A stretch of DNA of 55,830 nt from a virus (IMGVR_UViG_3300030102_001765:1-55830); one strand, 5' to 3'; counted from the stretch's first letter, positions 3,347-49,560 are shown. Numbers and translations are program-made. The notes: generated by a model not told the origin, from the sequence alone.

Positions 3347-3377
3347 GGACGACTCGCCGTCTCGTTCCGTCTAAACT
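3347..3377 (+). promoter_or_regulatory. GGACGAC-N18-TAAACT putative late promoter (terminase operon)
   Basis: Matches the recurrent motif with exact 18-nt spacing. Confidence 0.65.
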
Positions 3378-3488
3378 GCTGAAATGATTACACATGCGTT
3401 ATTTTCAGGCATTGTTCAGAGCCTACCGAGGCTAAAATTGAAAATTTTAGCACGCACACGTAGGAAAAACCCCTACATAGGGAGTCAA

Positions 3489-3510
3489 AAACCCTTGTTT
3501 ACAAGGGTTT
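3489..3510. repeat. Perfect inverted repeat AAACCCTTGT-TT-ACAAGGGTTT
   Basis: Directly visible 10-bp arms in the divergent non-coding region. Confidence 0.8.
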
Positions 3511-3640
3511 ACATGCGTTATGTGACTGATTTGTGCCTGAAACACGTGCAAGACGAGGCTAGGGGGAGGGGGGTATCCCGCCCGCTCGTGTGTAACGTAG
3601 ATAGTCACCTCCCCTACCCAACAAATAATCGGAGCAAAAA

Positions 3641-4096
3641 TTGAAAACGTCTGAAAAAAGAAGTACAAAGAAGTGCGAACGGTGCGAAAAGGACTTTTAT
3701 GTAAAGCCTAGCCACATGGATAGGGCGAAATACTGTTCCTGGGAGTGCCGAACAGCCAAAGGAAGCGTAAAAGATATGAAAACAGTCATGGCTACAGTGG
3801 AAAACAAGCCATTAACGCCCCAGCAATCTGCGCAAATACGTAGTAATATAGCGCAATATGTAAAAGACCAGATTGTAATAGCCAATGAAGTGGTGATGCA
3901 CGGCAAAGAATGGACGCCAACACAGGCAAGAGTCTTTGGCATGCTACTAAATAAAGTAGTTCCAGACCTAAACGCTGCATATCACAAGCACGAACACGAG
4001 ATTAAGAACTTAACCGAGATGTCTCGTGCAGAATTAGAGCAGATTGCTTCTGGAACTAAACAAATTGAAGGAGAATACGTAGAAGATGTTAATTAA
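3641..4096 (+). CDS. Putative terminase small subunit with N-terminal Zn-finger
   Basis: CERC/CSWEC motifs; LLNKVVPDL and LTEMSRAELEQ segments typical of TerS-like proteins; upstream of TerL. Confidence 0.6.
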   Translation: MKTSEKRSTKKCERCEKDFYVKPSHMDRAKYCSWECRTAKGSVKDMKTVMATVENKPLTPQQSAQIRSNIAQYVKDQIVIANEVVMHGKEWTPTQARVFGMLLNKVVPDLNAAYHKHEHEIKNLTEMSRAELEQIASGTKQIEGEYVEDVN

Positions 4097-4307
4097 AAAC
4101 CAAAGAAAGGACGCAATTAAGTCCCGAATTACGCTAGAACAATTCGCTATGGCTATGAAACACGCCAATTTAGAGAATGTTCCGCCAGAAAAACGCAAAC
4201 AAGCAGTGCTTGACCACCTATTTACAATAATGTCTGACACAGTTGTGGACTCTGGGCTCAAATACGAAATAAAGTCCAGCCAACTATTAAGGAAACGTCT
4301 TGGCTAA
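4086..4307 (+). CDS. Hypothetical protein
   Basis: RBS AGGAG; overlaps both neighbours. Confidence 0.65.
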   Translation: MLIKNQRKDAIKSRITLEQFAMAMKHANLENVPPEKRKQAVLDHLFTIMSDTVVDSGLKYEIKSSQLLRKRLG

Positions 4308-5919
4308 ACCAACGCAACAGGAAGTTGCGAGATATTTACTGCGATTACGTGACGCCAGCGAATCATTCCGTGGCTTCGTAAAACTTATGCAGCCTGATTG
4401 GGAACTCGCCAGCTTCCAAGAAGAATTGATAGACGTATTAGACAATTTAGAAAAAGGTGAGTTGGGTGCTGACAACCTTCTCATCACAATGCCACCACGT
4501 CACGCAAAATCAACCTTTGGCACAATATACTTCCCATCATATTTCATGGCTCGTAACCCATCTCGTTACGTCATGTCTTGTTCCTACAACTCACAGCTTG
4601 CCACAGACTTTGGTAGACAGATACGTGGGGTGGTAGAGGACAAAGCAATACCTCAAGCCTTCCCTGACTTCAAACTATCACAGGACAGTAGAGCAGCAGA
4701 CGTATGGCGTACCGAAGATAACGGTGCATACTTTGCTGTAGGTATTGGGGGCACGACCTCTGGTCGTCCCGCCAATCTTCTCATAGTGGATGACCCAGTA
4801 AAATCCCGTGAGGACGCCGAGTCTATGACTCAGCGAAACAAGACATGGAACTATTACACATCAGCACTAGCCACACGTCTTCAGCCAGAACAGAATGGCA
4901 CGAGACCAAAACAAATAGTAATCCTAACCCGTTGGCATCCTGACGACCTAGCTGGACGCCTCCAGCAAACAGAAGACTGGGAAGAAGGAAGATGGAAGCA
5001 TGTTAACTTCCAAGCAATTAAAACAGTCCGTAGTGGCAAAATAAGCCGTCGTGAGCTACCAGAAACAGATTCTAGGTACATCGAACCAGGGGAACTAACT
5101 AAACTCGCCCCTGGCAAGCGTACAGTCGATATTCACGAAGAGGAATCTTTGTGGCCTGAACGCTTCTCACTCGAAGACCTTAAGCGACGTGAGCGTCTTA
5201 ATCCTAGAGAGTTCGCATCTCTATACCAACAACGCCCATACATCGAAGGCGGTAACATCATCAAAACAGAATGGTGGCAAAAATATCCCAAAGACCTGTC
5301 ACCAGAAAGTTTTATGACGCTAGTAATCGGTGTTGACACAGCCTTCAAGAAAACAGAAACAGCTGACTACAGTGTAGCTGTGGTAGCTGGCATGGATAAG
5401 AACGGCGACATATACATAGTGGACATTATACGAGGCAAGTACGATTTCCCAGAACTAAAGCAAATGCTAGTCCGTCTAAACACAAAGTGGCGAGGCAAGG
5501 GACTCCGAGCTATGTACATAGAAGACAAGGCGTCAGGACAATCCATACTGCAAGAACTAAAACGTGAAAGCGGTATGTCTGTAATTCCTTACAAGGTAGT
5601 CCATGACAAGGTAGCCAGAGTCAACGCTATACTGCCTTTGATAGAAGGGGGACGAATTTTTATTCCAGAACAGGCAGAATGGTTAGATTCATTTATAGAC
5701 GAAACAGTAACATTCCCTGGAGGAAACCATGATGACCAAGTTGATGCTATGACAATAGCTGTTGATGTTCTGTCAAGAACATCCATTTCGCCCGATGCTT
5801 GGAGCCTACACACAGATGCTTCACAGTCATTGAACAACGCTAACCTAAAAGCTCTTGGAGACTCCCTGACCAGAAAAGTTGATAAAAAAGCACACGAATG
5901 GAAAGGTTGGGGTCTTTAA
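4300..5919 (+). CDS. terL: Terminase large subunit
   Basis: Walker A-like MPPRHAKST, Walker B LIVDDP, TRWHPDDLAG, nuclease VDTA and FPGGNHDDQVDA. Confidence 0.96.
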   Translation: MAKPTQQEVARYLLRLRDASESFRGFVKLMQPDWELASFQEELIDVLDNLEKGELGADNLLITMPPRHAKSTFGTIYFPSYFMARNPSRYVMSCSYNSQLATDFGRQIRGVVEDKAIPQAFPDFKLSQDSRAADVWRTEDNGAYFAVGIGGTTSGRPANLLIVDDPVKSREDAESMTQRNKTWNYYTSALATRLQPEQNGTRPKQIVILTRWHPDDLAGRLQQTEDWEEGRWKHVNFQAIKTVRSGKISRRELPETDSRYIEPGELTKLAPGKRTVDIHEEESLWPERFSLEDLKRRERLNPREFASLYQQRPYIEGGNIIKTEWWQKYPKDLSPESFMTLVIGVDTAFKKTETADYSVAVVAGMDKNGDIYIVDIIRGKYDFPELKQMLVRLNTKWRGKGLRAMYIEDKASGQSILQELKRESGMSVIPYKVVHDKVARVNAILPLIEGGRIFIPEQAEWLDSFIDETVTFPGGNHDDQVDAMTIAVDVLSRTSISPDAWSLHTDASQSLNNANLKALGDSLTRKVDKKAHEWKGWGL

Positions 5920-5950
5920 GGACGACCAAGTTAATAACAGAAAGTATAGT
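5920..5950 (+). promoter_or_regulatory. GGACGAC-N18-TATAGT putative late promoter (portal)
   Basis: Recurrent motif, immediately after the terL stop. Confidence 0.75.
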
Positions 5951-5957
5951 TTAGATT

Positions 5958-7919: not shown

Positions 7920-8197
7920 GCAAGGTAGAAGCACTCAAAGCCTCCATTGAAGACAAGAAGATAGTCGACTTGATGGAGGAGAACGACAGGCTCTTGGGAT
8001 TAGAGCTTACAGAAATGAACAAGACGAGGACATCTGAATACAAATCAATCAAAGACAAGATGACAGCTATGGAAGAAACCATAGCCAAATTAGAAACAAA
8101 GATTGAGGCACTAGAAGGAGCTGGTCAGGACGACAAGTATAAGATTACTAAAGTAAAACTAATACAGTTGATGAAAGATTTGGGGTATTACAACTAA
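7916..8197 (+). CDS. Coiled-coil hypothetical protein
   Basis: Translationally coupled at both ends; heptad pattern. Confidence 0.7.
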   Translation: MSKVEALKASIEDKKIVDLMEENDRLLGLELTEMNKTRTSEYKSIKDKMTAMEETIAKLETKIEALEGAGQDDKYKITKVKLIQLMKDLGYYN

Positions 8198-16463: not shown

Positions 16464-16741
16464 CCCCACAAGCAAAGCTCAAAGCGATAAAAGAGCTTAC
16501 AGGTTCAAAGGGTTGGGCAGTTCTTTTAGATGTAATGAATGACGAGATTCTGGCGTCTGCCATGTCTATTGCTGAGTCAGCAAACATGGATTTGACAGAA
16601 ATAAACTTCAGACGTGGCTCTATATGGGCTGCTAAGAGGATGCTCGAATTACCTGTACGTCTGCAATCAAAGCTGGAGTCGGAGATTGCACTGTCTGATA
16701 TGGACGACAGAAAAAAGAATACAGGCAATAATGAGCAATAA
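16460..16741 (+). CDS. Hypothetical head-module protein
   Basis: Coupled start; sits before the scaffold gene. Confidence 0.7.
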   Translation: MTPQAKLKAIKELTGSKGWAVLLDVMNDEILASAMSIAESANMDLTEINFRRGSIWAAKRMLELPVRLQSKLESEIALSDMDDRKKNTGNNEQ

Positions 16742-16785
16742 TTTAAACAAACCCCCCGCTTCGGCTGGGAGAACGGAGAAATAAA

Positions 16786-18045: not shown

Positions 18046-18196
18046 GGATGACAAGTACATGGTTTATAACATATCATACTAATAACACACAAAGTTGCGC
18101 TACGGCTCAATGTGTTAAAGAGTTTATGCGATGGTTAATTTCCGTAACGACTCGACTGTAAAAAAAACCGTAACTAATGCTATAAGGAGGTAAATT

Positions 18197-19390: not shown

Positions 19391-19393
19391 TTA

Positions 19394-19424
19394 GGACGAC
19401 CTTGCAGTTCTATTGAGGCATAGT
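19394..19424 (+). promoter_or_regulatory. GGACGAC-N18-CATAGT putative late promoter (tail genes)
   Basis: Recurrent motif just after the capsid stop. Confidence 0.7.
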
Positions 19425-29357: not shown

Positions 29358-29387
29358 GACGACTGTAATACAGCAATAATATAAATT
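29357..29387 (+). promoter_or_regulatory. GGACGAC-N18-TAAATT putative late promoter (giant protein and lysis genes)
   Basis: Recurrent motif overlapping the upstream TAG. Confidence 0.7.
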
Positions 29388-38400: not shown

Positions 38401-38996
38401 AGCTCAAGTCATTCCCGCTGATGATGACACGTCTTACAGGACACGTCTTGAAGGAAGCAAACTCTGGAAACTTTGGCCCACTGTTAGCTTTCGCAACTCT
38501 TGGCCCAACATTTGGTATGGGAACTCTAGCAGCAAAAGATATTTTGCAGTCACGTGGTGGTGAAGAAGGCAGAACCCCAGAGGTTAGAAAGAGAAACATT
38601 CTTAAATCTCTAGGCTATGACAAAAAAGTACATGGAGATGAAAACGACTTCCTTGGCTGGTATGTTGAAGGTTTGATTGTAATGGGTGGTCTTGGTCTTA
38701 TTGGAGACATGATGCACACAGCAGTTGAACAAATAGACAACGGAGCTTACGGACGAGAAAGAATGTGGGGAACATTACTTGGCCCAACGTTTGGTCTTGG
38801 CAACTCAGTAGCTAATGTTTTTGCTGGCATCGGAGAGGAAGAAGGAAGCGGTAAAGCAAGACAAGCAGTCAGAGAAATTGCCAACAGGATACCAGTTGTC
38901 GGTGGTAACAGAGCAGCTAAAGAAGCTATCGTTGATGCAGTTGCTGGTGAAACTGATGATGGTTCCAAGTCTTATCTAAGGAGCATCACTAAATAA
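29415..38996 (+). CDS. Giant polyvalent internal virion protein (zincin peptidase, ADP-ribosyltransferase-like and E3-binding/Lsr2-like motifs)
   Basis: 3193 aa; HEVGH+EYFAE; YHGT..GPGIYVT..GYDG..NQIK; SGRITKRQV. Confidence 0.8.
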   Translation: MANQTNYDGISFAPQEEGATDVGYLNVSPDQITKDPRFLTDLRKYYADYGKYFSTDQEYLDEFYEDATWRDLNTAGAVIGATYTAGESKETRARAKRLEQAWRQLPMFWQEGGRGFASAAPDIAKAIILDPVNLIPVVGAYGKAANVAKAAYLAGTAGREATKAGIKSGIITAGVQEAGIGALAEGVISTANQIRDVQLGLEDEVSLGRVAKDAVIGGATGGIIGGGVLGPVPAFIGARRGVNRTAAQVDELTGKGLTGQQIADTVAARGVTGFDELVEASKDTDAFLGPPETTETTTATESPTAEIDEKINQIKTFYKEEQDLLDSQLDDGVDPDIVAETEVNLNELAALREFGENLKAEQIEISKLEASNNPNLRAQAQKRRAIFERNYSKFRRATKGGLNLSEINEILEQYRAKPSDTADANPVETETTTTEATGEGTTTTEAAPEGRTEGTAPEADATATETVPADETVTATVEVKFDDMPFRNEAQKTKIQSRFNEEYTQEQFEADFAAGKISVGRDGKFTRDTVGEVTASASLARDRKAFTEMMDSKKPEPNETTVTAEPEAKTDEIIIDSESRGRALAAGLDPKDIPAAEASASGRITKRQVNKAINAAKNKPKSSYAQQVKRDLDTLLETIGEDIDVDENSLRALIRVMSQDKAAYRSDPDDILALFDEFNKSGMATGDKAFTKTELKKIRQLVRKIRDPKEGNPEFSKETAQILAERQVLNARDNPETQTESLVRSVQKSIDNKSIYETAGRDTRGRIQAMLRKSSVNVKPNEFAKEEAIIKATSGKGPDVVKYISGGETAIGPDGRKVRVKAGTTLFADGVTKRSFVSYEYLMKTRGVNIGKKSTKKVKQPTDETPTITNEVVQKLVADLQADGDTDKFIRTVKALQKKGAGVPEEPSATVDVPTTSAGKKLIVRSKNNAADVRMISQKQISEGKGIEAIIGQKGGPNSNPANWEIKYAPFDAEAKTLRARQELFESLPSGEVPGQTREDVIKKPMDEADFNEKELELSEAEVAIVNNILGDMGFRGANGLKGNAITGRTLMVMEDKLSMGGWPVKESAMDARIEQIAFLENLMAKIAPDGVNKPVQTRAEAKLAIENIFAGHSSEEIAGAKRLIDMLGGDPDKAPLIRGKTTDTIGAYRGYYTQRDNAVTMRTGQGRGTDMTQLTPTINVLYHEVGHWAYRNILTPEDRAQFWNIAKTHYKGGRVDSGSIDESRYLQNQTISKEGRPDYVVRQPTSPQEYFAEQFEMWVSRKKASPDLATEKFWQRIATYVKGIFDRYYYGAELNPDLEPIFAKIIPDVEEEVTFRLGVDGEPKKEIGKHIQKRLVQLQIVKEDIESAIGRDSPEAIVEAHKELQLLLLQMVPNSKVVARDGADAAIFSPLRKGAAGRRGMVKLIRDRINNYDEMIDGRQYGTDDGFDVRNYGDFSTQADLEKVAEQLKDFYYNGYAGTFKPAQGLPPSVKVENIGNRRSSTQNLIGMIDKQLNAVYQQKEGTTNLIGGSKPDMANKPPVRSNGKVQPSKTAKNTKIKNERIKEQTLNEAVQVAKTKKNSRARVTAKNTPAINQNSAESVKGKKLNDLLALFRKHKGTEYGDQIGVEIVNKIKSQPAPAKQVRVSRETFKLSGDALESELLDALHVGDKARVDEAYAEVVRRANNKRAKSQGGAAILKPKFKKAKMAIATEIAHNKGVIRNDGIPSAARASVREMLSYITHRDTEMQQVSRTIAYRMMNILNKSSYGTMQNANRITMDIMARLGRGDYAVTGDGAFGNYNLPDFKNFRNTVRRLATALNKGEDVDSGITELNKMVIRSGALPQDEMDVIRAAYDALDDTAKAQVIAKHGSKYEGYYSMTRDEMLANEWFGDSISRYMKEDITREDILELSISGDTQNIANIAVLDRAIDRTIEYSSYIANGQIGRQDVKNAYRRVSMYGDMFEDNAARPLAGSLEGKYLTHPSYAADYAHDSFMSMSKDKKTKILRFVKGGYGFDEPNQMPLFFYHGTPRGNKLKKANNPNVQMRPSEIGLYGPGIYVTENPFVASQMYARTPTFNAMVDAIDESNLSDIIKEDLHWDAYELTQVRRDIGKLRRQYASLQPDAYLQREIADERVLVKEQLDELIQVERGLVENMKKNGMEFESDVLPTVIKLDSPADFRATSVYQSEDDPFLQALMAKFNEEDVPAEMISSLSMRGVDGRAFGPRTGEDIYNSVIDAFVRFGGRSKTGAQAEFNNMLQEMGYDGLLTTHRNSLNDGDEFVEVNRTYGASSIQHETAVLFNSNQIKHIDADEFNDMEYGIYAQTTGNPIPKGAVGSMARGLQDGDFNSINDIPVGEFGELLESAGGDPNYVGALMSLMRKRTLTPAEEETIRKSSPVGFLKSQSNNLRDMGARWLGDWYENHFPNLNQRFAGIYFPIQKAMRDLPDSDGSLKRYFKKSVNVGTKITDKIAEQPKSHAKIVKALRYGDGSRHETALTDQERVVYRQIRGAFEAERQAMLDAGLMVGYRQNYFPQVWNAKAIGKDRDKFVEVLQRYYNKDALLNGRTPTDAEAKDFAEGVMMKLVDDEDGADGTFIPVKGTTRSPTFDNVDYSRVLELDRPEFIDELRDLEKYLESDLDALLVKYFEGSSRKMTHVDELGINSHAVYDYMQVAEEGIQGIAKLLSTNKQFRFDRSATNASGMRETFTLQDVIRMPFANSDAEALKFAEQLVNTHNGAGAPAARQLLYSVAPIDPRTGRMNQTYKRRADAIVHALDDFKGKTGVLQPQDYDFIERSLKPVMKKPLTTMGGKAIQTASRNVRFFNNITLLSYTTLTSLGDLMLPIIRSGSMKSWMKGMYSLRDAEMRQAIRNTGVAMENIIHERMIHLYGAPDGKASHAFFNATLLTDWTDMNRQIAAATGYNYFQAMQTKAFNNFKEGVPYAQQPASYKTAHRALKMYGLEMYLPGAEVNPKSLGDKNVLQDKHVKMAMIRFADDSIFQPNADDVPMWAQTPIGAVVFQLKSFPLMMTRLTGHVLKEANSGNFGPLLAFATLGPTFGMGTLAAKDILQSRGGEEGRTPEVRKRNILKSLGYDKKVHGDENDFLGWYVEGLIVMGGLGLIGDMMHTAVEQIDNGAYGRERMWGTLLGPTFGLGNSVANVFAGIGEEEGSGKARQAVREIANRIPVVGGNRAAKEAIVDAVAGETDDGSKSYLRSITK

Positions 38997-40550: not shown

Positions 40551-40763
40551 CTACTTATTATTATTGTCTTGGTCTGTTGGATACTTGATGACCCTTCTGC
40601 ATTGCTTCTTCTGTACAATGGGGTCTCTCTTTTGTTCAAGTAAGTTAGCCATAACCAAACAACTTGCATGGCTAGTGAACTCTAATCTTTTTAGTTTTAC
40701 TTCTGACGACTCAACGTCTGGGACAATCAGCAACCACAAGCTATAAACAAATACTTCCTTCAT
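40551..40763 (-). CDS. Small hypothetical protein
   Basis: ATGA-coupled to the upstream gene; hydrophobic N-terminus, 2 Cys. Confidence 0.55.
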   Translation of the reverse strand: MKEVFVYSLWLLIVPDVESSEVKLKRLEFTSHASCLVMANLLEQKRDPIVQKKQCRRVIKYPTDQDNNNK

Positions 40764-41080
40764 TTGAAAGACCTGTATTCAACAGTCTTGTTCAGTTCTC
40801 TGGCAACCTTTATGCCTTGCTTCATCCCTTTCGATATACCTCTGTCTGTATAGACAACAACGTAATCTGCAACATCATACCACTTAAATGCAGCATCTAA
40901 TCCTATTTGTCTTTCTGATTCCACGTCTTCATCTAACACTTGCGTGTACAGTAGATGAGATAAAAAAGGGCTCTCGCCCTTTTTTAATGAATCAAGCATA
41001 CACTTACGTGCGAACTCTCTATTTTTTTTTCGGTCTGCCTCGTTTTGCCCTTTGTACGGGCTCTCTACTATTACTTTCAT
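40760..41080 (-). CDS. Nucleoside 2-deoxyribosyltransferase-like (DUF4406-related) protein
   Basis: VIVESPY, PFLSHLLY, GISKGM motifs. Confidence 0.6.
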   Translation of the reverse strand: MKVIVESPYKGQNEADRKKNREFARKCMLDSLKKGESPFLSHLLYTQVLDEDVESERQIGLDAAFKWYDVADYVVVYTDRGISKGMKQGIKVARELNKTVEYRSFK

Positions 41081-41351
41081 TTGTTATTTCTCCTCCAATA
41101 GCTCCATAAGCACACAAGTCCACCCATGAATCTGCATGCTCTGGTGTTTTTATAAGCCGTGAAATCTTCAAGCCAATCATACACATAACAACTTGTTCAG
41201 CTGTTATCTGTTTACCAAGAATCACAGACCAAATCTTAGCAATGTCTTCGTGATTCTTCTTTGCGGGCCCATACACTTTGGCTCTGTCACTATTGATAAG
41301 TTGGTCTGCCGTACCTAGAAATGACGTACGATTAAATTTTTTCTTATTCAT
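41019..41351 (-). CDS. DUF6378-like protein
   Basis: DRAKVYG, IAKIWS, LKISR, DSWVDLCAY. Confidence 0.75.
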   Translation of the reverse strand: MNKKKFNRTSFLGTADQLINSDRAKVYGPAKKNHEDIAKIWSVILGKQITAEQVVMCMIGLKISRLIKTPEHADSWVDLCAYGAIGGEITNESNSREPVQRAKRGRPKKK

Positions 41352-41604
41352 TTTTCATTCTCATCTTTATTAGTTGTATCTGTGCTTCAAGCTCTCGCTT
41401 CTTGTGGTTAAGTTCCACAGTCTCTTTGCGAAGATGCTTACGTTTATCATTGGCTTTTGCGAAGTCATCCTTCTCAAGATTGCTTCTCGAAATGCGTTCC
41501 AATATAGAGTTGATTTCGTTCTCGTTATGCTCGATGTCTTTCATAACTTCGGAACGTTCTTTGTGTAACGTTACAAATTTCTTTTCCAACTCTTCATACT
41601 TCAT
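41344..41604 (-). CDS. Coiled-coil hypothetical protein
   Basis: ATG 41604 directly after the nuclease stop; heptads. Confidence 0.7.
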   Translation of the reverse strand: MKYEELEKKFVTLHKERSEVMKDIEHNENEINSILERISRSNLEKDDFAKANDKRKHLRKETVELNHKKRELEAQIQLIKMRMKNE

Positions 41605-41605
41605 G

Positions 41606-42427
41606 TCAGCTTCCCTTCGGCAACGGTTCATAAAGCTCGTAAAAGTTACACAGTTCTCTGGCACTTCGTCCGTGTTTCTGGCAATGCCAGTCACCATCCG
41701 ACTTGGCGATTGCAAACTTACACGTCGTGCATGACTTGGGAACATCAATTTGCCCCCAACACGCACCCCTTTTAAAACACCCTCGGCATCTCCAATCTGT
41801 TTCGTCATTGCTAATCTTCCTCGCTTTGTTAAGTAAAACCCTCTCAATCCGTTCTTTAATGAACATAAACTCAAGGTCATCATAATCCACAATCTCAGAA
41901 TGGTATTCGCTAGTATTCTTATTGATTGCTATAAAAAAAGATGTCGGCATTTGCGACATCCCCATCATCATTTGTAACTGTGAGTAATATCTAGGATGTG
42001 ATTTCTTTACACCTTCCTTTTGAAATTTTTTCCATGAAGCATCGTTCATGCTTTTGATTTCGAGAACATGCAAGTCTTCCTTGCCTTCGTCTAACTGTAT
42101 GTGTCCGTCCATGTGACAGACGACATGACCACCCAGCTCCTCGTATGTATGTTGTCTTCCAGTCAGTCCGTCTTTTTCCCAGACCCTGACGTCTGCTTTA
42201 ACTTTTAAATCTCTAACGACTTCGTCTTCAAGAATGTGACCAAGTCTAAATATTCTTTTCAATCTTGGTGTCGGTGGATTGTTTGGAAACCCACGCAGAC
42301 TAAATGCTATCTCAGCATCACAAGCAGTACCAATCATAGATGCACCGATGTAATCTCTGGCTTTCTCTCTTGGCTCTTTCTCGTAACCCTCGTCTATTGC
42401 TTCTATTATTTTTTGTGCTTCGACCAT
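41606..42427 (-). CDS. Cas4-like PD-(D/E)XK exonuclease
   Basis: YIGASMIG..C, GH..E, HMDG, LEIKS, Q.Q..M, C-terminal CRGC..C and CTTC. Confidence 0.85.
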   Translation of the reverse strand: MVEAQKIIEAIDEGYEKEPREKARDYIGASMIGTACDAEIAFSLRGFPNNPPTPRLKRIFRLGHILEDEVVRDLKVKADVRVWEKDGLTGRQHTYEELGGHVVCHMDGHIQLDEGKEDLHVLEIKSMNDASWKKFQKEGVKKSHPRYYSQLQMMMGMSQMPTSFFIAINKNTSEYHSEIVDYDDLEFMFIKERIERVLLNKARKISNDETDWRCRGCFKRGACWGQIDVPKSCTTCKFAIAKSDGDWHCQKHGRSARELCNFYELYEPLPKGS

Positions 42428-42440
42428 ATTAAACCTGTAT

Positions 42441-42479
42441 AAAAAAAGAAGGAGTGGGGAGGATTTCCACTCCTTCTTT
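42441..42479 (-). terminator. Rho-independent terminator after the SSB gene
   Basis: AAAGAAGGAGTGG/CCACTCCTTCTTT stem with a U tract on the minus strand. Confidence 0.8.
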
Positions 42480-42487
42480 GCTAGTGA

Positions 42488-42973
42488 CTAAAACGGGATT
42501 TCGTCGTCTAAGTCTTTGTTATCTGCGGGAGGGTCAGACTTTTCAGACTTAGCGTCTGCCTTTGTAGGCATAAACGACTTGACCTCTGAACTCTGTCTTT
42601 GCACCCCATCGTCACCAGTCCAAGGTTTCCCTAAACCGACTCTGATTTTACATTGCAATCCTTTCAGAGACGCAACATCCCCAGGCTTGTCAGGTGTTGA
42701 GTGTCCAGCACAGACGAGAAATGATTTCAACTGTCTGAGGGCAATCTCTTGTGCCTGACTGCTGGTGTGCTTGATGTTCAAGTTCACCCTTATATCACCT
42801 TGACCATCGACATCATCGAAGTCAAGAACCAATTTACGATTGTTGGTAGCACCAACGGGTTCAATGGATGCGTTCTTACATTCCACTGTATACACACCTT
42901 GTTGTAGGCGTGTGCTTCCTGACCCTTCTTCGACAGAAGACAAGTCAAGATTAGTAAAGTTCCAATCACTCAT
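42488..42973 (-). CDS. Single-stranded DNA-binding protein (DUF669-like)
   Basis: GVYTV OB-fold start; acidic tail DLDDEIPF. Confidence 0.85.
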   Translation of the reverse strand: MSDWNFTNLDLSSVEEGSGSTRLQQGVYTVECKNASIEPVGATNNRKLVLDFDDVDGQGDIRVNLNIKHTSSQAQEIALRQLKSFLVCAGHSTPDKPGDVASLKGLQCKIRVGLGKPWTGDDGVQRQSSEVKSFMPTKADAKSEKSDPPADNKDLDDEIPF

Positions 42974-42974
42974 A

Positions 42975-43730
42975 CTATTTCTCCTCGGCTGTAGCCATTC
43001 TTGTTAATAATTCAGTGACATCATCCACTTGTTCAAATGGTTTCAGTACACCCTTTGGGTCTCTGGTCTTGCCATGCCACCCACTCACTTCGTCCGTAAC
43101 GATATATCTCTTCACCTTTGGCAAACCTTTATCGTTTGTCTCTGTCCGTCTCACACCACATAAGACGTGGTCAAACAAAGCTGGAACTTGTTTTGCAACA
43201 GAAGCTCCTTTCACCATAGGCCAATAATGAGTTACATCATTAGCGTCCTTCTCCTCCTTCGCCAAACACGTTACGTAGACATGCAAAGGCAAGTCACGTA
43301 TCCACTTCAAGGCTCCAATCATAATCCGTGAATTGTCACCATATAGTTTGAAGTTGTTGTTATCTCCCTGATGCTCGGCTTCGAGATGCTCCATCAACCT
43401 ATCTGACATCTCTGTCAAACTATCAATGGCTATCCACTTATAACCTTGCTTGGCAAACTCTGGGTCTGCAATCATCTTCATAATACCACGGAAGCTATAC
43501 TTGCCGTTCTCAGGGTCATGCCCCTTGTCCCATGAAGTAAACGGAACATAATCAATGTCCACGTCTTCGATTGATTTCAGACCAGCCTCACCTGATAAGA
43601 TGAGTCCTTTTCCATATCGTGTTTGATAGAACCTACACTGAAAGGTTTTACCAAACCCATGATGTGCATAAAGCAGAACCTTTGTAGGCCCGTCTTGCAT
43701 TATGTCTTTTGTACTAAACGTCTTGAACAT
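42975..43730 (-). CDS. Sak4-like AAA_24 ATPase/recombinase
   Basis: LLYAHHGFGKT, IAIDSLT, GKTRDP; adjacent to the SSB and exonuclease. Confidence 0.85.
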   Translation of the reverse strand: MFKTFSTKDIMQDGPTKVLLYAHHGFGKTFQCRFYQTRYGKGLILSGEAGLKSIEDVDIDYVPFTSWDKGHDPENGKYSFRGIMKMIADPEFAKQGYKWIAIDSLTEMSDRLMEHLEAEHQGDNNNFKLYGDNSRIMIGALKWIRDLPLHVYVTCLAKEEKDANDVTHYWPMVKGASVAKQVPALFDHVLCGVRRTETNDKGLPKVKRYIVTDEVSGWHGKTRDPKGVLKPFEQVDDVTELLTRMATAEEK

Positions 43731-44148
43731 GTTTCACTACCCTCACTTTCGGTTTGTCAAGATTGCGTGTTAGGCAATACTTGATTTCGTTTTGTGTTTC
43801 TAAAGGCATCTTTGTGAACGCCCTTTTATCTATGCTGAGATTACGCTTTACATAATGAGGCAGAGGTTTCTGCTCAAAATGTTTTTCCAAAGCGTCCTTA
43901 TCCCAAGACCATCTCTCAGAACGAGAAACAATGACTTCATACAATCCAAGTTCCTTGGACTGTGAGCCTGACTCTTCTGGAAATAATCTGGAGATGTCTC
44001 CCTCTAGCACAGATATTCTTTCTTCGAGGGTTATCTTCTCAAGGTTTAGTTTATACAGCTCGGCAGACATATCTTCCAATCGCTGTGTCGTTTTAGATGC
44101 GACAACATCTTTGCGTGTTTTGTCAAACACGTCCCAACTATCAGTCAT
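43714..44148 (-). CDS. Hypothetical protein (Gp157/Gam-like position)
   Basis: Coiled coil plus VKRNLSIDK; RBS TAAGGAGG. Confidence 0.65.
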   Translation of the reverse strand: MTDSWDVFDKTRKDVVASKTTQRLEDMSAELYKLNLEKITLEERISVLEGDISRLFPEESGSQSKELGLYEVIVSRSERWSWDKDALEKHFEQKPLPHYVKRNLSIDKRAFTKMPLETQNEIKYCLTRNLDKPKVRVVKHVQDV

Positions 44149-44216
44149 ACGACCTCCTTATTTAATGCGTCATCAGCAATTTATATGAATGATGACTTGA
44201 TTAATAATATAGGTGT

Positions 44217-44245
44217 AGTATAAATTATACATTAATGCAAGTCAA
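44217..44245 (-). promoter_or_regulatory. Sigma70 promoter of the recombination operon
   Basis: Minus strand TTGACT-17 nt-TATACT. Confidence 0.8.
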
Positions 44246-44257
44246 AAGGAGAACAAA

Positions 44258-44485
44258 ATGCGACTTAACATCGAGAAGCTCATCACCGATTTGGGTGGGG
44301 CGTCTTCGGTGGCTAAGATAACTGGCGTGGTTCGTACTGCCCCATACGGCTGGATGAAGCGACGCTATATAAGTAGCCAAGTTCTTGAGAAAATAAAGGA
44401 GCATGCTCCAGACATTGACTTTAACGATTACTTTGAGGAAGACGAACATGAACGAAAAACTGGCAGCAGCGCTGGATTATCTTGA
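44258..44485 (+). CDS. Cro-like HTH regulator
   Basis: LITDLGGASSVAKITGVVRTAPYGW; divergent position; RBS AAGGAG. Confidence 0.75.
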   Translation: MRLNIEKLITDLGGASSVAKITGVVRTAPYGWMKRRYISSQVLEKIKEHAPDIDFNDYFEEDEHERKTGSSAGLS

Positions 44486-46349
44486 GAGAGGTTGGTCTGT
44501 AATACCAATCAAACCAGACGCTAAAAGACCCGCTATTAAGTGGAGACAATATCAAGAGAAGCCACCTACTGAGAAAGAAGTAGACCAATGGTGGACACAG
44601 TGGCCTGACTATGACATTGCAATCATAACAGGCGAAGTAAGTGGAGTTGTTGTTGTCGATTGCGACAATGATGAAGCTTACAAACAGGCAATAAATACAG
44701 GCATGCGCTCGGCTTTTACAGTCAAGACGAAGAGAGGAGTGCATTTATATTTCGAGCATCCCAAAGACGGAGTTCGTCGTGGGCCTCGTGCTGGCGTAAA
44801 CAGCACGGGCTCCGACTGGCCTCGCATAAATGGTTTAGACTTTAGAGGCGACGGCTCTTATGCGTTGTTGCCTCCAAGTAAAAACTACAGTTGGGAAATA
44901 GGTATGGGCTTGGATTGGGATGACCTTCCAATTTGGAAGGATTGGAAACCAATCTTACCATCTATGGACGGCAAAGACTTTGAGTTCTCGCAGTTAGACT
45001 TGTCGTCTGTCATGCCACTAGACCCAGACGAGTTTATATCTGAGTGGGACAGGACTGCCAAATATGTCCGTGATTCTTTTCCAAACTCACTGAAGATTCC
45101 ATCTGGTCTTGGAAACGGACGCAATGAACGTGTGATGCGGTACATATCTGAATCCATACTTGAGGGGTTCTGGGGTCACGATTTACGTCTTCGTGGCTAC
45201 GCATTTATGAATGAGTTTTTTGAAGAGCCCTTAACAGAACGTGAGTTTGAAGCAACCGTTCTGTCTATGGAACAATCAGAACGACGTAATCATCCTGACA
45301 GATTCGATGAGAAGGGTGACTATATATATAAGCCATACATAAATGCCAACCAACCAGTCGAAGCTAGGTCACGCAGACTTATACAGATGAAGGATGCAGA
45401 CCAGCTGTTACAAGAAGCTGATGCAAAGACGTATCTGATAGAACCTTGGCTTCCAAGCAACACGATTGTGCAAGTGTTTGGATACAGTGGTCACGGCAAG
45501 TCGTTGTTTGTGCAACATGCGATGGGTGCTTTGGCTGCTGGCAACAAATACTTTGGCCCTTTCGAGATAGGCAAGCCAGCACGTGTCTTGTACATGGACT
45601 TCGAGATGGGCATGGCTACCATTGCAAGACGATTGATTGACTTGAAATCAATACACTCTGATACAGCTGACAGACTCAATATCTGGACTCCGTTTATTGA
45701 TAAGAAAGAAATCAATCTGCACAACAGAGATGGCTTACAGGAACTGCAAGGTTGGATTGAGTTCTCTGACCCAGACGTTGTCGTCATTGATACACTGCGA
45801 ACAGCTTATCCAGGGCTTCAAGAGAACAGCTCAGACGAATGGTCAAAGGTAAACCAGCTCGCAGTGAAGCTCAGAAACTCTGGCTTGTCTGTAATACTTA
45901 TACATCACAGCAACAAACCAAGTGACAGTGGTATCGGGAGAGAAGCTGGCTCAACGAATCAGCTTACTACTTTGGAAACACAGATACGTGTAGCACAGGT
46001 ATTCCAAGACGAAGATACAGCGAAACAAAATGCTGCGTTGTATGATGGCAACTACGACCAACCTGTTTGGCCCTTGCTGCAAGGAAGTTTGCCTGAGAAC
46101 TTTCGTCTGTACATGGTGATGGAGGTTCGGTACGGAAAGGTTCGTGAGTGGACAGACCTACACGATAGAGTTCAGTGGCTGGGGTTTTCCGCAAACGATA
46201 TTACTGGCGAGAAGCGTATCGTCGCTAGCAAATCTACAAAACAAAAAGCAAAAGAGATGGCTCTGAACGGACTAGATGCCGAGCATATAGCTGATAAGCT
46301 GGGCAAGCCCCTTACTTTGGTTCGTCTTTGGTTGGAGTTATCGAGGTAA
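44448..46349 (+). CDS. Bifunctional Prim-Pol primase / RepA-like (AAA_25) helicase
   Basis: GWSVIP, VVVDCD, GVHLYF, DFRGDGSY, GRNE; Walker A GYSGHGKS, VVIDT, LIHHSNK; RBS GAGG before ATG 44448. Confidence 0.92.
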   Translation: MNEKLAAALDYLERGWSVIPIKPDAKRPAIKWRQYQEKPPTEKEVDQWWTQWPDYDIAIITGEVSGVVVVDCDNDEAYKQAINTGMRSAFTVKTKRGVHLYFEHPKDGVRRGPRAGVNSTGSDWPRINGLDFRGDGSYALLPPSKNYSWEIGMGLDWDDLPIWKDWKPILPSMDGKDFEFSQLDLSSVMPLDPDEFISEWDRTAKYVRDSFPNSLKIPSGLGNGRNERVMRYISESILEGFWGHDLRLRGYAFMNEFFEEPLTEREFEATVLSMEQSERRNHPDRFDEKGDYIYKPYINANQPVEARSRRLIQMKDADQLLQEADAKTYLIEPWLPSNTIVQVFGYSGHGKSLFVQHAMGALAAGNKYFGPFEIGKPARVLYMDFEMGMATIARRLIDLKSIHSDTADRLNIWTPFIDKKEINLHNRDGLQELQGWIEFSDPDVVVIDTLRTAYPGLQENSSDEWSKVNQLAVKLRNSGLSVILIHHSNKPSDSGIGREAGSTNQLTTLETQIRVAQVFQDEDTAKQNAALYDGNYDQPVWPLLQGSLPENFRLYMVMEVRYGKVREWTDLHDRVQWLGFSANDITGEKRIVASKSTKQKAKEMALNGLDAEHIADKLGKPLTLVRLWLELSR

Positions 46350-46515
46350 CTTTTGCATCAGGGAAGTGCTGTCTGATTTCGTCAACTATCTTGGCGACTT
46401 CTGGGTGGCGCTTCCTATTTTCTTCACGCTGTTTCTCAATCTCTAAGTCACGATTGCGCTTCCAAGAGTTGTACTTTTCTTCAATTTCTTTTTGTCTTAG
46501 ATTTAATTTTTTCAT
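46312..46515 (-). CDS. Hypothetical protein
   Basis: NRKRHPEVAKIVDEIRQHFPDAKV; convergent with the primase gene. Confidence 0.6.
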   Translation of the reverse strand: MKKLNLRQKEIEEKYNSWKRNRDLEIEKQREENRKRHPEVAKIVDEIRQHFPDAKVTSITPTKDEPK

Positions 46516-46525
46516 GTATTAAGGA

Positions 46526-46631
46526 TGATACAACGACTTTCACTTCGCTAAAAACGCCTTAAGTCAAAAGGCGTGGTTTACAACCACGCCTTTTAAAGAC
46601 TAAACGTTTAGTCGTTGTATCACTTTTGACT
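46526..46631. repeat. Nested inverted repeats/palindromes
   Basis: 13-bp outer IR 46526-38/46610-22; 13-bp hairpin 46566-78/46582-94; 16-bp palindrome 46598-613. Confidence 0.9.
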
Positions 46632-46722
46632 GGATAAATCAACACCTAGAAAAAAATTTCTTGTAAATATTTGTTATTAGTATTAAATGTTATACTATAC
46701 ATGGAAAAAGGAGCAGTGATAT

Positions 46723-47016
46723 ATGCCAAGAAACATTCGAGTCTCGGACTCGGACTTATCTTGGCTTCGTCAAAACCATAGAATTAAAACTTACTCTGAC
46801 ATGGCACAACACCTAAATTGTTGTGTCGATACCTTGAAAAGAATACTTGTAAGAGAAGGCTTGCAAGAGTTCGATGGGGCCAAGTATCAGGTTCGCCGTG
46901 ACTTCCAAGGAAAAACGTGGACTAGGCCGTGCATGAAATGTAGAGATACGACAGAGCGACCCAAGAATTGGTTTTTTTGTAAGTCTTGTCGTAAAGATTT
47001 GGGGTACGAAGATTGA
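46723..47016 (+). CDS. HTH plus C-terminal Zn-finger transcription factor (GcrA-like architecture)
   Basis: TYSDMAQHLNCCVDTLKRIL HTH; CMKC...CKSC; RBS AAGGAG; extended -10 TGTTATACT upstream. Confidence 0.65.
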   Translation: MPRNIRVSDSDLSWLRQNHRIKTYSDMAQHLNCCVDTLKRILVREGLQEFDGAKYQVRRDFQGKTWTRPCMKCRDTTERPKNWFFCKSCRKDLGYED

Positions 47017-47396
47017 GTAAACAAAAGAAAAAAGGCGACGACTACGAAAGAGAGTTAGCCAAATACATTAATCAAGAAACAGGACTGAAGACAGCACATA
47101 GAGCCCCATTATCTGGTGGCGGTTACGTAGACATGTCGGGTGGTGCAGATATTCTTGGTGTCCCAGGGATATTCATAGAAGCAAAACGTGTTGAACGTCT
47201 GAACTTCCATGATGCCCTGAGACAAGCAGAACGTAACATAGGAAAAACAAATGCGCCAGAGGTTCCTATAGTAATTAATAGAAAAAATAGAATGAAGACA
47301 GGCGAAAGCCTATGTCTGATAAGGCTAGACGACTTCTTAAAATTTTATTGTAGTTACCTGAGAGAAACAGGTTCAGTCAAATTTAACAACAGATAG
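47013..47396 (+). CDS. Holliday junction resolvase (Hjc-like PD-(D/E)XK)
   Basis: KKKGDDYERE, RAPLSG, ADI, IEAKR. Confidence 0.85.
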   Translation: MSKQKKKGDDYERELAKYINQETGLKTAHRAPLSGGGYVDMSGGADILGVPGIFIEAKRVERLNFHDALRQAERNIGKTNAPEVPIVINRKNRMKTGESLCLIRLDDFLKFYCSYLRETGSVKFNNR

Positions 47397-47426
47397 GACG
47401 ACTAAGACGTTGTCATCCAGTATCTT
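47396..47426 (+). promoter_or_regulatory. GGACGAC-N18-TATCTT putative late promoter (basic-protein operon)
   Basis: Recurrent motif overlapping the resolvase TAG. Confidence 0.7.
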
Positions 47427-47497
47427 TATTGAGGGTAGAGAAGTACAGTTTATTGGCTGTATACTTTTATACATACTTTACAGAGTGGTTTTTGGAT

Positions 47498-47764
47498 ATG
47501 GCACGAAAGAAAAAGAACGTCAGTTTATCAGTAGGAAGAGGCGAAAAGAGACCCGCCTCCAGAGGGGCGGGCCTCACAGCAAAAGGCAGACGTAAATATA
47601 ATAAAGCTACGGGCTCTAACCTGAAAGCTCCACAGCCACAAGGTGGTAAACGTAAGAAATCATACTGTGCAAGGTCTGCTGGCCAGATGAAAATGCACAA
47701 CATCAGTTGTAAGAAAACACCAAAGAAAAGAATCTGCGCAGCCAGACGTCGATGGAAATGCTAA
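47498..47764 (+). CDS. Small basic protein (DUF6321-like)
   Basis: GLTAKGRRKYN, LKAP, RKKSYCAR, ARRRWKC. Confidence 0.75.
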   Translation: MARKKKNVSLSVGRGEKRPASRGAGLTAKGRRKYNKATGSNLKAPQPQGGKRKKSYCARSAGQMKMHNISCKKTPKKRICAARRRWKC

Positions 47765-48381
47765 TGGCAGACGACTGGGAAGAATACTCAAGTTTGATTG
47801 CAGCTGAAATACAGGCGTGGTCAAACGAAGTCTTGGAAAAACCAACGCCACTGTTTGCAGACATGCCACCATGTCCTTTTGCAAGGAAAGCTTGGATGGA
47901 TGGACACGTTGTCGTACATGTCACAGACCATCTTGCTCCAGTAATCAACATCAAAAGCCACGAGCTGTTACCAACAGACGAAACTGTACATGTCGTAGCG
48001 TGGACAGGCTGGGAAGACTTGACTCGACAAGAGTTCGAGGCGTGGCTAGACGAACAAAACAAAAACCATTTCGGCATTTGGCTTATGGGTTTTCACCCAG
48101 ACGCCGAACACAACCCCAACATTCCTGAGTTCGATGGTCTTGTTGAGGACGACTACGCACTAATTTTAGTGCAATCATTGAGTAAACTTGTTCAAGCATC
48201 TGATAAGTTGAGGAAGACAAGTTACTATGAAAAGTTTAAGATAGAAGACATCAAGTATATTAACAACCGCAAGGAGGTATGCAATGCGTGGAATGAAAAA
48301 GTCAATGAAGAAGCCTATGCCCAAGAAGAAAGCTATGGCATCAAAAAAAGGCTCCTCAATGAAGAAGAAAAAATCCATTAG
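47752..48381 (+). CDS. DUF1415-like protein
   Basis: PPCPFARKAW and GFHP motifs; acidic; start may be a later Met (~47758-47764). Confidence 0.6.
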   Translation: MEMLMADDWEEYSSLIAAEIQAWSNEVLEKPTPLFADMPPCPFARKAWMDGHVVVHVTDHLAPVINIKSHELLPTDETVHVVAWTGWEDLTRQEFEAWLDEQNKNHFGIWLMGFHPDAEHNPNIPEFDGLVEDDYALILVQSLSKLVQASDKLRKTSYYEKFKIEDIKYINNRKEVCNAWNEKVNEEAYAQEESYGIKKRLLNEEEKIH

Positions 48382-48391
48382 GAGAGCATAA
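48284..48391 (+). CDS. Lys/Met-rich micro-protein (35 aa, not in track)
   Basis: RBS AAGGAGGT; MRGMKKSMKKPMPKKKAMASKKGSSMKKKKSIRRA; stop abuts the next ATG. Confidence 0.7.
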   Translation: MRGMKKSMKKPMPKKKAMASKKGSSMKKKKSIRRA

Positions 48392-48583
48392 ATGATTAAG
48401 AAAAACCGAGGTGTAATCTTCGGAACACGTGGCAAGACGCCAGGGATGCAGACGATGAAGGTTGGTGGCAGAGCTATCAACCCTTATCGTGCAATGTCCA
48501 TGATGCCTAGCCAGTTCGGAAGAACAACTACAGGAGTAAAGCCTATCTTCGGTGGTCGTGGTCGTTCCCTCAGACGTAGGTAA
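48392..48583 (+). CDS. Arg/Gly-rich micro-protein
   Basis: RBS AGGAG; no acidic residues. Confidence 0.7.
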   Translation: MIKKNRGVIFGTRGKTPGMQTMKVGGRAINPYRAMSMMPSQFGRTTTGVKPIFGGRGRSLRRR

Positions 48584-48588
48584 AGACT

Positions 48589-48720
48589 GTGGCTAGCATT
48601 GGTAGGAAGGTAAAGTCTGTCGCTAATAAAACGCAGACAGGTAAAATGAAACACGCAAACTGTCCTTGCGTGATAGCAAGAGGTAACAATGGCAAGAAAG
48701 TCAACGTCAAAAAAGCGTAA
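48589..48720 (+). CDS. Basic micro-protein (43 aa, not in track)
   Basis: GTG start after AGGT; MASIGRKVKSVANKTQTGKMKHANCPCVIARGNNGKKVNVKKA. Confidence 0.55.
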   Translation: MASIGRKVKSVANKTQTGKMKHANCPCVIARGNNGKKVNVKKA

Positions 48721-48874
48721 GACTTCTGCTAAGAAAGACGCTTGTTACCACAAGGTTAAGTCACGCTACACAAAGTGGCCTAGCGCTTACGCAAGCGGAG
48801 CGTTAGTTAAATGTAGACGTGTAGGTGCAAAGAACTGGGGTAATAAGAGTGGCTCGAAGCGAAAGTCTGCATAA
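48689..48874 (+). CDS. Basic micro-protein (DUF5872-like)
   Basis: KKDACYHKVKSRY..WPSAYASGALVKCR; RBS GAGGT. Confidence 0.75.
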   Translation: MARKSTSKKRKTSAKKDACYHKVKSRYTKWPSAYASGALVKCRRVGAKNWGNKSGSKRKSA

Positions 48875-49067
48875 ATGGTTCAGCCGAAACAAAGGCAAAG
48901 GTTGGGTAGACTGCAAGACTGGAAAGCCTTGTGGTCGTAAGTCGGCGAAAGGTAAATCCAAGAGACCTTACCCAGCTTGCAGACCGACGAAGGCTCAATG
49001 TACGTCTGCCAGCAGAAAGAAGAAAGGGCCAGCACGTATCAGCTGGAAGAAAGGTAAAAAGAAATGA
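48849..49067 (+). CDS. Basic Cys-containing micro-protein
   Basis: SLHKWF..WVDCKTGKPCGR..YPACRP. Confidence 0.7.
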   Translation: MARSESLHKWFSRNKGKGWVDCKTGKPCGRKSAKGKSKRPYPACRPTKAQCTSASRKKKGPARISWKKGKKK

Positions 49068-49213
49068 TGGGTCGCAACAAAGGAATGAAGAAAGGAAAGG
49101 GCTTAACTAAAAAGCAAAAGATGATTGCTGGTATGGCTCCTCCCTTTGACAAGATAACAGGCGCAGACTTCAAGAAGCTTAAGCAGAAGAAGAAGCGCAC
49201 GAGAACAGCTTGA
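49064..49213 (+). CDS. Basic micro-protein (49 aa, not in track)
   Basis: ATGA coupling; LTKKQKMIAGMAPPFDKITGADFKKLK. Confidence 0.7.
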   Translation: MMGRNKGMKKGKGLTKKQKMIAGMAPPFDKITGADFKKLKQKKKRTRTA

Positions 49214-49530
49214 TTTGCTATAAATGTGGGGGCTCTACAAAAGTATTAGACAGTCGTTCCAAAGACGGAAGCATAAGACGCAAGAGAACATGCACGAATT
49301 GCACTACGAGTTTCTGGACATTGGAAGTATTAGAGACCTCCTTGCACACAGAGAAAGACTGTACGTCAGAGAAGAACGTTTCTCAGACGAAAAGAAAAGC
49401 AGCCCCAAAAATTTCCCAGGAAAAACTAAATAACACATCGTATATGTTCGACGTCGACAGCTTGTCAGACGAAGAGCTGGAAAGACAGGTGATGTCTGGC
49501 AACGTACGATTTGACGAAGACGAACTATAG
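49210..49530 (+). CDS. NrdR-type Zn-ribbon domain protein (no ATP cone)
   Basis: CYKCGGSTKVLDSR..IRRKRTCTNC..F.T.E. Confidence 0.75.
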   Translation: MICYKCGGSTKVLDSRSKDGSIRRKRTCTNCTTSFWTLEVLETSLHTEKDCTSEKNVSQTKRKAAPKISQEKLNNTSYMFDVDSLSDEELERQVMSGNVRFDEDEL

Positions 49531-49560
49531 GACGACACTTCCTACTCCCGTAGCTATTTT
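49530..49560 (+). promoter_or_regulatory. GGACGAC-N18-TATTTT putative late promoter
   Basis: Recurrent motif overlapping the TAG. Confidence 0.7.

Follow-up and report, generated by a model that had tools for sequence, protein, structure and literature searches.

The window analyzed here is the whole of IMG/VR virus record IMGVR_UViG_3300030102_001765 (55,830 bp, rated 100% complete, 44% G+C), the complete genome of a member of the CRP-810-type family of marine temperate phages. Its + strand carries a recurring element in which the heptamer GGACGAC, hereafter the box, is followed after 18 or 19 nucleotides (nt) by a hexamer of the form YAwnnT. We conclude that GGACGAC-N18/19-YAwnnT is probably a promoter class of the CRP-810-type family, in which the host RNA polymerase reads the hexamer as a -10 element and a phage factor made early reads the box at the place of the -35 element. 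A host-read -10 combined with a phage-specified -35 box is the most economical mechanism for the arrangement described below, and a conserved protein of 97 amino acids (aa) is, on the basis of its modelled fold and its distribution, the best though unproven candidate for the reader of the box.

Recurrence and conservation of the box

GGACGAC occurs 14 times in the window (11 copies on the + strand and 3 on the - strand) against an expectation of 3.62 +/- 1.95, and the composite GGACGAC-N18-TANNNT occurs 5 times against 0.04 expected; none of 100 shuffled sequences reached either count, bearing out the genome-wide recurrence of motif and spacing that a sequence-only reading of the window had claimed. 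The seven + strand sites that this reading had listed with an 18-nt spacer (P1-P3 and P5-P8, Table 1) are present with the hexamers given for them, as are the 19-nt variants at 18046 (P4), 13434 (TAAACT) and 21672 (CATTAT); at 8128 the box and the 19-nt spacer stand, and the hexamer, TAAAAC, lacks the final T and is weaker than claimed. A further + strand copy, at 48147, lies inside a gene, and the - strand copies (1169, 4763 and 51249) all fall within genes and have no hexamer. Overlap with or abutment on the upstream stop codon, also part of that reading, is found at six sites (P2 and P4-P8).

A capsid query identified 141 relatives in IMG/VR, and the best 80 loci were retained for comparison; after removal of two (L023 and L063) in which the capsid match ran into the contig end, the remaining 78 loci (951 kb) contain GGACGAC 269 times on the gene strand versus 9 times on the opposite strand. 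Downstream of the capsid gene, 52 distinct sequences could be compared, and the box lies no more than 30 nt past the stop codon in 42 of them, with nAnnnT following 17-19 nt later in 41 of the 42. In 41 of the 52 sequences box and then hexamer are followed at once by a G+C-rich hairpin and its T-run; three have the classical promoter layout of a terminator followed by box, hexamer, Shine-Dalgarno sequence (SD) and ATG, and seven have no box. A portal query gave 80 loci, the terminase end being found in 78 and yielding 43 distinct terL/portal junctions, every one of which has GGACGAC at the terminase stop. At 26 of the 43 junctions nAnnnT stands at N18/19 with a start codon 6-7 nt further on, five have the hexamer but a longer leader, and twelve have hexamers such as TAAAAA and TAAAAC that fail the rule of a T at position 6.

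A search of 50,697 deposited phage records gave a single relative of the window, Roseobacter phage CRP-810, the only cultured member of the family, with 68% nucleotide identity across the capsid-tail region. This phage has the same gene order, and its boxes lie on the equivalent strand before gp63 (the first late gene), at the terL/portal junction, after the capsid gene and before gp36. Among ten near-complete genomes (numbered with the prefix G below), which are the longest contigs and hence a non-random sample, eight carry 10-19 boxes on the gene strand versus 0-9 on the opposite strand. The two low-G+C genomes, G001 and G002, have only 3/4 and 2/1 boxes (gene strand/other strand), together with degenerate sites: GGAAGAC-N18-TATACT-N6-ATG at the portal gene, AGACGAC-N17/18-TAYACW elsewhere and a GGTAGAC variant. 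Most boxes have been lost in this low-G+C clade (L087-L092), and ordinary-looking elements stand instead at its late-operon start and after the capsid gene (TTGACT-N16-TATTGT and TAGGGTATAAT). The box is unchanged across family phages of 41-64% G+C, distant relatives of 55-64% G+C retain the exact box and the hexamer at N18/19, and the box stays at the same gene boundaries although the spacer sequence varies. The reading of the element as a promoter is thus strongly supported by the relatives, through the fixed spacing of the hexamer, the retained position, the strict strand bias and, at two sites, an ATG 6-7 nt past the hexamer.

Anatomy of the element and the ordinary early promoters

A sequence logo of 61 boundary sites reads aAGGACGACc, a variable spacer, and gTAwnnT. 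When the hexamer is realigned as Y-A-w-n-n-T, A2 is present in 59 and T6 in 56 of the 61 sites, and position 1 is a C in 18; 34 sites have a spacer of 18 nt, and 24 have one of 19 nt. Because realignment picks the best offset, a separate test with fixed spacing was run, in which YAnnnT was found at N18 or N19 in 52 of 60 boundary sites; the corresponding figures are 1 of 35 for copies on the opposite strand and 5.7% for random positions. The fraction among gene-strand sites inside open reading frames (ORFs) is 27 of 72, and several of these fall within the final codons of their gene, with an SD and ATG close behind.

The hexamer has the A2 and T6 of a sigma-70-type -10 element and stands 6-8 nt before the predicted start. 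At the place of the -35 element there is no TTGACA-like sequence: the position is occupied by ACGACn, which has only GAC in common with it, TTG being replaced by the invariant GGAC. By its distance from the hexamer, the box covers approximately -37 to -31, and its last three bases align with the GAC of TTGACA at a spacer of 17-18 nt, and a generic sigma-70 scan picks up 18048 (ATGACA-18-TATCAT) and 16704 (ACGACA-17-AATAAT).

The sequence-only reading had assigned ordinary promoters to the early and replication genes. This stands for a conserved promoter upstream of the Cro/YdaS-like gene at 44258, which faces a leftward promoter on the opposite strand; overall, sigma-70-like matches in the window do not exceed those in shuffled sequences (19 vs 22.1 and 21 vs 30.5). 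Among 12 genomes compared, cTTGnCA/TTTACA-N16/17-TATAtA can be read at the same early site in several, most clearly in the window, CRP-810, G003, G005 and G006. Early promoters are accordingly served by the host polymerase through a normal -35. Since these phages keep an ordinary TTG-type early promoter, the box marks a second, distinct promoter class, which in the window is confined to + strand units. The label "late" that had been given to the class proved too narrow, because the sites at 47396 and 49530 serve non-structural genes in the replication arm.

Words of the type (GT)CAACACCT or AGGTGT occur at the early divergent promoters and again upstream of the gene for the 97-aa protein (44211-44218 and 46638-46647 in the window), and they are found at both places in CRP-810, G005, G006, G008 and G010 as well. 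They may constitute a repressor or Cro operator placing the early promoters and the candidate reader gene under one control; GTCAACACCT-like operator words are not enriched in the window at two mismatches (62 vs 58). The Cro/YdaS-like protein is encoded in all 12 genomes and is probably an early regulator.

Individual sites and proposed mechanism

The coordinates of the sites and of the surrounding gene blocks are collected in Table 1.

Table 1. Box sites, other control elements and gene blocks of the 55,830-bp window.
Feature	Position	Strand	Details
P1, start of structural (late) operon	box 3347-3353	+	TAAACT 3372-3377, gctgaa, ATG 3384
P2, terminase/portal junction	box from 5920	+	abuts terL stop; TATAGT 5945-5950; portal ATG 5958
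P3, scaffold gene	box 16702-16708	+	in last codons of preceding gene; AATAAT 16727-16732; ATG 16786
Hairpin in P3 5' untranslated region	16757-16765	+	CGCTTCGGC
P4, major capsid gene	variant box GGATGAC 18046-18052	+	N19; TATCAT 18072-18077; ATG 18197
Hairpin in P4 leader	18098-18106	+	CGCTACGGC
P5, nested in capsid terminator	box 19394-19400	+	CATAGT 19419-19424
Capsid terminator	stem 19422-19433/19438-19449	+	T-run after stem
P6, 3193-aa internal-virion protein and lysis genes	box at 29357	+	overlaps TAG; TAAATT 29382-29387; SD ACTGGAG; ATG 29415
P7, after Holliday-junction resolvase gene	box at 47396	+	overlaps TAG; TATCTT 47421-47426
Genes of P7		+	basic DUF6321 protein (ATG 47498); gp20-like gene 47752-48381
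P8	box at 49530	+	overlaps TAG of NrdR-like zinc-ribbon gene; TATTTT 49555-49560; SD AAGGAGG; start 49586
Boxes inside genes	8128 (8128-8160), 13434, 21672, 48147	+	
Early rightward promoter	44196-44260	+	cTTGATT-N16-TATAAA; upstream of Cro/YdaS-like gene 44258-44485
Facing leftward promoter	44245-44217	-	TTGACT-17-TATACT
Candidate reader, 97 aa	46723-47016	+	N-terminal three-helix helix-turn-helix; C-terminal CxxC-N12-CxxC zinc ribbon
Structural arm	3384-40534	+	small genes, terminase, portal, tail fibres, scaffold, capsid, tail, internal-virion proteins, lysis genes
Recombination genes	40551-44148	-	
Replication arm	44258-50038	+	
Arm with CobS/CobT and integrase		-	

Several of these sites recur individually in the relatives. 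The homologue of P1, GGACGAC-N18/19-TAAGTT-gttgaa-ATG, is present in CRP-810, G003, G004, G007 and G010, with close variants in G005, G006 and G008; sites equivalent to P3 occur together with a CGCTWCGGC hairpin in G003, G004, G005, G006 and G007; G010 and G008 have a canonical GGACGAC at the position of P4; and homologues are found for P6 in CRP-810, G003-G008 and G010 and for P7 in G003, G005, G006 and G008. For the four boxes inside genes it is uncertain whether they are internal promoters or a coding coincidence arising from Asp-Asp codons; retention of the 21672-type site in the box-poor G001 and G002 points to coding constraint in that case. The CGCTWCGGC hairpin, which has a UNCG-type loop, lies in the scaffold and capsid leaders about 55 nt past the box. 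There are about two per genome, nearly always on the gene strand and also in the box-poor G001 and G002, and the hairpin is possibly an mRNA-stabilizing or processing element.

The motif, its spacing, strand bias, conservation and geometry are evident from the sequences themselves; we infer that transcription starts at the sites, with host sigma-70 reading the -10 hexamer and a phage protein reading the box. In the proposed mechanism the host RNA polymerase holoenzyme would recognize the hexamer in the usual way, and a phage-encoded factor, made early, would read the box at about -37 to -31 and switch on about eight middle and late + strand transcription units. With an ATG 6-7 nt past the hexamer at two conserved sites, leaderless mRNAs are predicted for the first late gene and for the portal gene, both of which would start at the ATG: the sequence places the start of P1 at the A of the ATG, and the mRNA from P2 would be leaderless or have a 1-nt leader.

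At P5 the hexamer runs into the 12-bp stem of the capsid terminator (-29.5 kcal/mol, z -5.3). The predicted start, at approximately 19431 and about 7 nt past the hexamer, lies within the 5' arm, and an RNA starting there has no 5' arm and no terminator fold. Transcripts from upstream would stop at this terminator, whereas new ones would start within its stem and run on into the next gene, which probably begins at ATG 19467.

RNA contigs over the capsid region

In four seawater metatranscriptomes the capsid region is represented by contigs from related strains, which are short, of low depth and too fragmented to place transcription starts. Contigs from three of the four runs begin at about 18105, 18105 and 18123, downstream of the predicted P4 start (about 18084) and just within or past the hairpin of the capsid leader; no listed contig spans 17908-18105. 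In three of the four runs contigs end at 19393, 19394 and 19394, at the position where the post-capsid box begins, with no loose ends. Coincident ends also occur within the capsid gene, at 18633 (two runs) and 18912 (two runs), so that the ends at the box may be assembly breaks. The contig starts near 18105 and the ends at the box may alike be real RNA ends or such breaks, and we take all of them as weak evidence.

These ends, and the abutment of boxes on stop codons, would fit a box that acts as an RNA processing or 3'-end signal between cistrons. Such a signal would leave the -10 hexamer, the distance to the ATG and the sites located 3' of a terminator without explanation, and given the coincident ends inside the capsid gene as well, we regard it as very improbable.

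Candidate readers of the box

The sequence-only reading had stated that the phage has no recognizable sigma or RNA polymerase gene, and for sigma factors this holds at the level of Pfam families in all six frames. Sigma70_r2 (PF04542), MotA and AsiA (PF09114, PF09010) and Ogr_Delta (PF04606) gave no match in the six frames of the window at E <= 1, and the model for T7-type RNA polymerase (PF00940) gave none in six frames, but none in control genomes either. The sigma region 4 models PF08281 and PF04545 touched only a generic helix-turn-helix (HTH), an 84-aa IclR-type winged HTH (wHTH) scoring 12 and 10.7 bits; a sigma factor beyond the reach of Pfam is possible.

A phage-encoded sigma factor or other polymerase subunit that has diverged beyond recognition and reads both box and hexamer would have precedents in gp28 and gp33/34 of Bacillus phage SPO1. 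It would suit the layout of a heptamer, about 18 nt and an AT-rich hexamer, as well as the C at hexamer position 1 in nearly a third of the boundary sites, and many ORFs of the window, being without family assignment, could encode it. The results with the sigma models speak against it, as does the A2/T6 pattern of the hexamer, which is the same as in the ordinary early promoter of these phages, and we consider a diverged sigma unlikely.

Some extracytoplasmic function (ECF)-type -35 elements begin with GGAAC, and a host alternative sigma factor or conserved activator could in principle read the box and thereby bring the phage promoters into a host regulon. The temperate lifestyle of the family and its mostly alphaproteobacterial hosts, as given in the CRP-810 report (PMC11288001), would fit such an arrangement. 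On the other side, the hexamer is of the housekeeping rather than the ECF type, the box is identical in phages spanning the G+C range given above, and in three metagenome-assembled genomes holding related contigs, for which binning is uncertain, the composite occurs 1, 0 and 3 times versus 7, 10 and 30 times for the reversed control. An unchanged box over 41-64% G+C together with the lack of enrichment in these assemblies favors a reader that travels with the phage, and a host factor seems quite improbable.

Several phage proteins were tried as readers and set aside. The LuxR-type regulator of CRP-810 (gp13) has no homologue in the window (tblastn, E <= 1e-3) and therefore cannot be the general reader. 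The gp20-like protein, for which no family and no PDB match was found and only DUF6875/DUF1415-like leads exist, occurs in box-rich genomes and is absent from G001 and G002, but it was also not found in the box-rich G007. The wHTH protein (50024-50278), encoded next to the integrase gene, was not found in four of the 12 genomes compared, including the box-rich G007 and G008 (16 and 19 boxes). The giant 3193-aa protein, considered as a virion RNA polymerase, showed only a weak, sub-threshold match of residues 2001-2052 to ART-PolyVal (ADP-ribosyltransferase of polyvalent proteins) and no PDB sequence match.

The integrase-adjoining wHTH also bears on a different function of the boxes, as operators of a prophage repressor (stoperator-like) that silence the lytic genes from positions at gene ends or overlying weak host promoters. 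The sites are asymmetric, co-oriented with transcription and located at stop codons in a temperate phage with an integrase, all of which such operators would share. However, a roadblock needs neither a hexamer at a fixed distance of 18-19 nt nor an ATG 6-7 nt further on, and with the wHTH not found in two box-rich genomes, silencing by a repressor is highly improbable.

For the promoter reading, the candidate that remains is the 97-aa protein, whose gene was found in each of the 12 genomes compared. Its homologues number 130, many of them on contigs of 55-60 kb like the window; among deposited phages a homologue occurs only in CRP-810 (OR671924.1, 14026-14316, - strand; 70% identity over the full length), where no annotated feature underlies it. 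In the third helix, DTLKRILVREGL, residues D36, T37, L38, K39 and R40 do not vary among 45 sequences with identities as low as 37%, and 117 of 120 homologues contain DTLKR. At this helix the sequence of the box-poor G001 and G002 is DTIKRILVRHNL, with only three changes in and just after it. The predicted structure (pLDDT 81) comprises a three-helix HTH followed by the ribbon, and in a wider fold search the DNA-binding domain of Caulobacter GcrA (5yiu_A) came first (Z 6.4, root-mean-square deviation 2.7, 47 residues aligned). The gene has its own extended -10, TGtTATACT, so that the protein could be made early by the host polymerase alone. A monomeric GcrA-type fold reading a 7-bp asymmetric site and a single 7-bp box at -35 together give a coherent picture, which we take as a lead only; a specific role as a monomeric stand-in for sigma-70 region 4 that re-aims the host RNA polymerase to the box promoters is a tentative suggestion that we consider doubtful. 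A modelled complex of the protein with Caulobacter RpoD scored 0.00 and carries no weight either way.

A nested inverted repeat lies between the primase-polymerase gene and the gene of the 97-aa protein (46526-46622; -43.6 kcal/mol, z -6.8), with 13-nt outer arms and a 13-bp inner hairpin. The repeat, of which G001 and G002 contain a counterpart, may serve as a bidirectional terminator or as an origin, or it may encode an RNA.

Several observations weigh against the promoter reading or its proposed reader. The GAC of the box is kept at the -35 place, and weak direct recognition by host sigma-70 without a phage factor is possible. The RNA ends at 19393/19394 are unlike read-through to the terminator. 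G001 and G002 are box-poor yet retain the 97-aa protein, so that the distribution of its gene does not follow that of the box. The modelled structure has a weak fold match, with generic homeodomain, Myb and Tc3 folds within one Z unit of it; a Foldseek search with the model returned nothing below E 0.5, and the Pfam GcrA family (PF07750) gave no match to the protein at E <= 10.

Genome context

The CobS-like gene on the - strand (1-1547 and 55400-55830) extends past both ends of the record, indicating that the linear record is a permuted circle or was opened inside a gene. The 3193-aa ORF (29415-38996) aligns in order with CRP-810 gp36, annotated as internal virion protein D, and with gp35 and gp34, annotated as hypothetical, and thus looks like a fusion or unsplit form of three separate CRP-810 genes. 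A cluster of small, very basic proteins follows P7 (47498-49067), comprising the DUF6321 protein (88 aa) and then K/R/G-rich ORFs of 63, 61 and 80 aa. No Rfam family was found in the window.

According to PMC11288001, the CRP-810 family is temperate, marine and globally distributed, is represented by 251 uncultured genomes and includes prophages in SAR11, Poseidonocella and Sphingomonadaceae, its hosts being mostly Alphaproteobacteria. The words promoter, sigma and RNA polymerase have no occurrences in the text of that paper, and literature searches by motif returned only primers or unrelated text, nothing relevant.

Significance and comparison with known systems

The box offers a ready map of the transcription units of the family. 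It leads to the prediction of leaderless late genes and singles out a conserved gene without annotation as the likely switch. Box and regulator would form a compact, portable pair that is testable in roseobacters, and a promoter embedded in a terminator would be a way to uncouple capsid mRNA levels from those of the downstream genes. If the proposal is true, the 97-aa protein would represent a new family of phage proteins that switch transcription, distributed across an abundant group of oceanic phages. Phage-specific promoter classes are known from elsewhere; new here are the box, the absence of a known reader family, the conserved, predicted leaderless starts and the promoter nested in a terminator.

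The T4 middle promoters combine a MotA box with a sigma-70 -10 element and are activated by MotA and AsiA through sigma appropriation, the MotA box being centered at about -30, approximately 12 nt from the -10. The class described here resembles them in that a housekeeping-type -10 is kept, a phage box replaces the -35 element and, as proposed, one or more early phage proteins switch the class on. It differs in the sequence of the box and in its placement at about -37 to -31, ending 18-19 nt before the hexamer; there is no MotA or AsiA domain in the six frames of the window, and host and phage family are unrelated.

SPO1 middle and late promoters are read by the phage sigma factors gp28 and gp33/34. 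They share with the box class a phage-specific, heptamer-like -35, a spacer of about 18 nt, an AT-rich -10 and the use in later gene classes, whereas no sigma domain is detectable in the window. The stoperators of cluster A mycobacteriophages, such as the sites of L5 gp71, are likewise numerous, asymmetric and co-oriented with transcription, and they too lie in short gaps next to stop codons in a temperate phage. The box sites differ from them in carrying a -10 hexamer at a constant distance and, in two cases, a start codon where transcription is predicted to begin. Ogr of P2 and Delta of P4 are zinc-finger late activators, and the sites of Ogr are dyads near -55. A small zinc-binding phage protein that switches the host polymerase to late promoters is what we propose here too, with the differences that the box is single and at -35, that Ogr_Delta has no match and that the candidate has an HTH in addition.

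For the candidate reader itself the closest comparison is with Caulobacter GcrA, a sigma-70 cofactor (PMC4647560, PMC9976885). According to PMC5887438, its DNA-binding domain folds into a bundle of three helices similar to sigma region 4, and it is as a monomer that this domain binds an asymmetric site of 7 bp. Unlike GcrA, the candidate has a zinc ribbon in place of the sigma-interacting domain and does not match the Pfam family, and GGACGAC contains no GANTC methylation site. The GcrA DNA-binding domain is the top fold match of the modelled N-terminal domain, at a score within the chance range for small helical domains.

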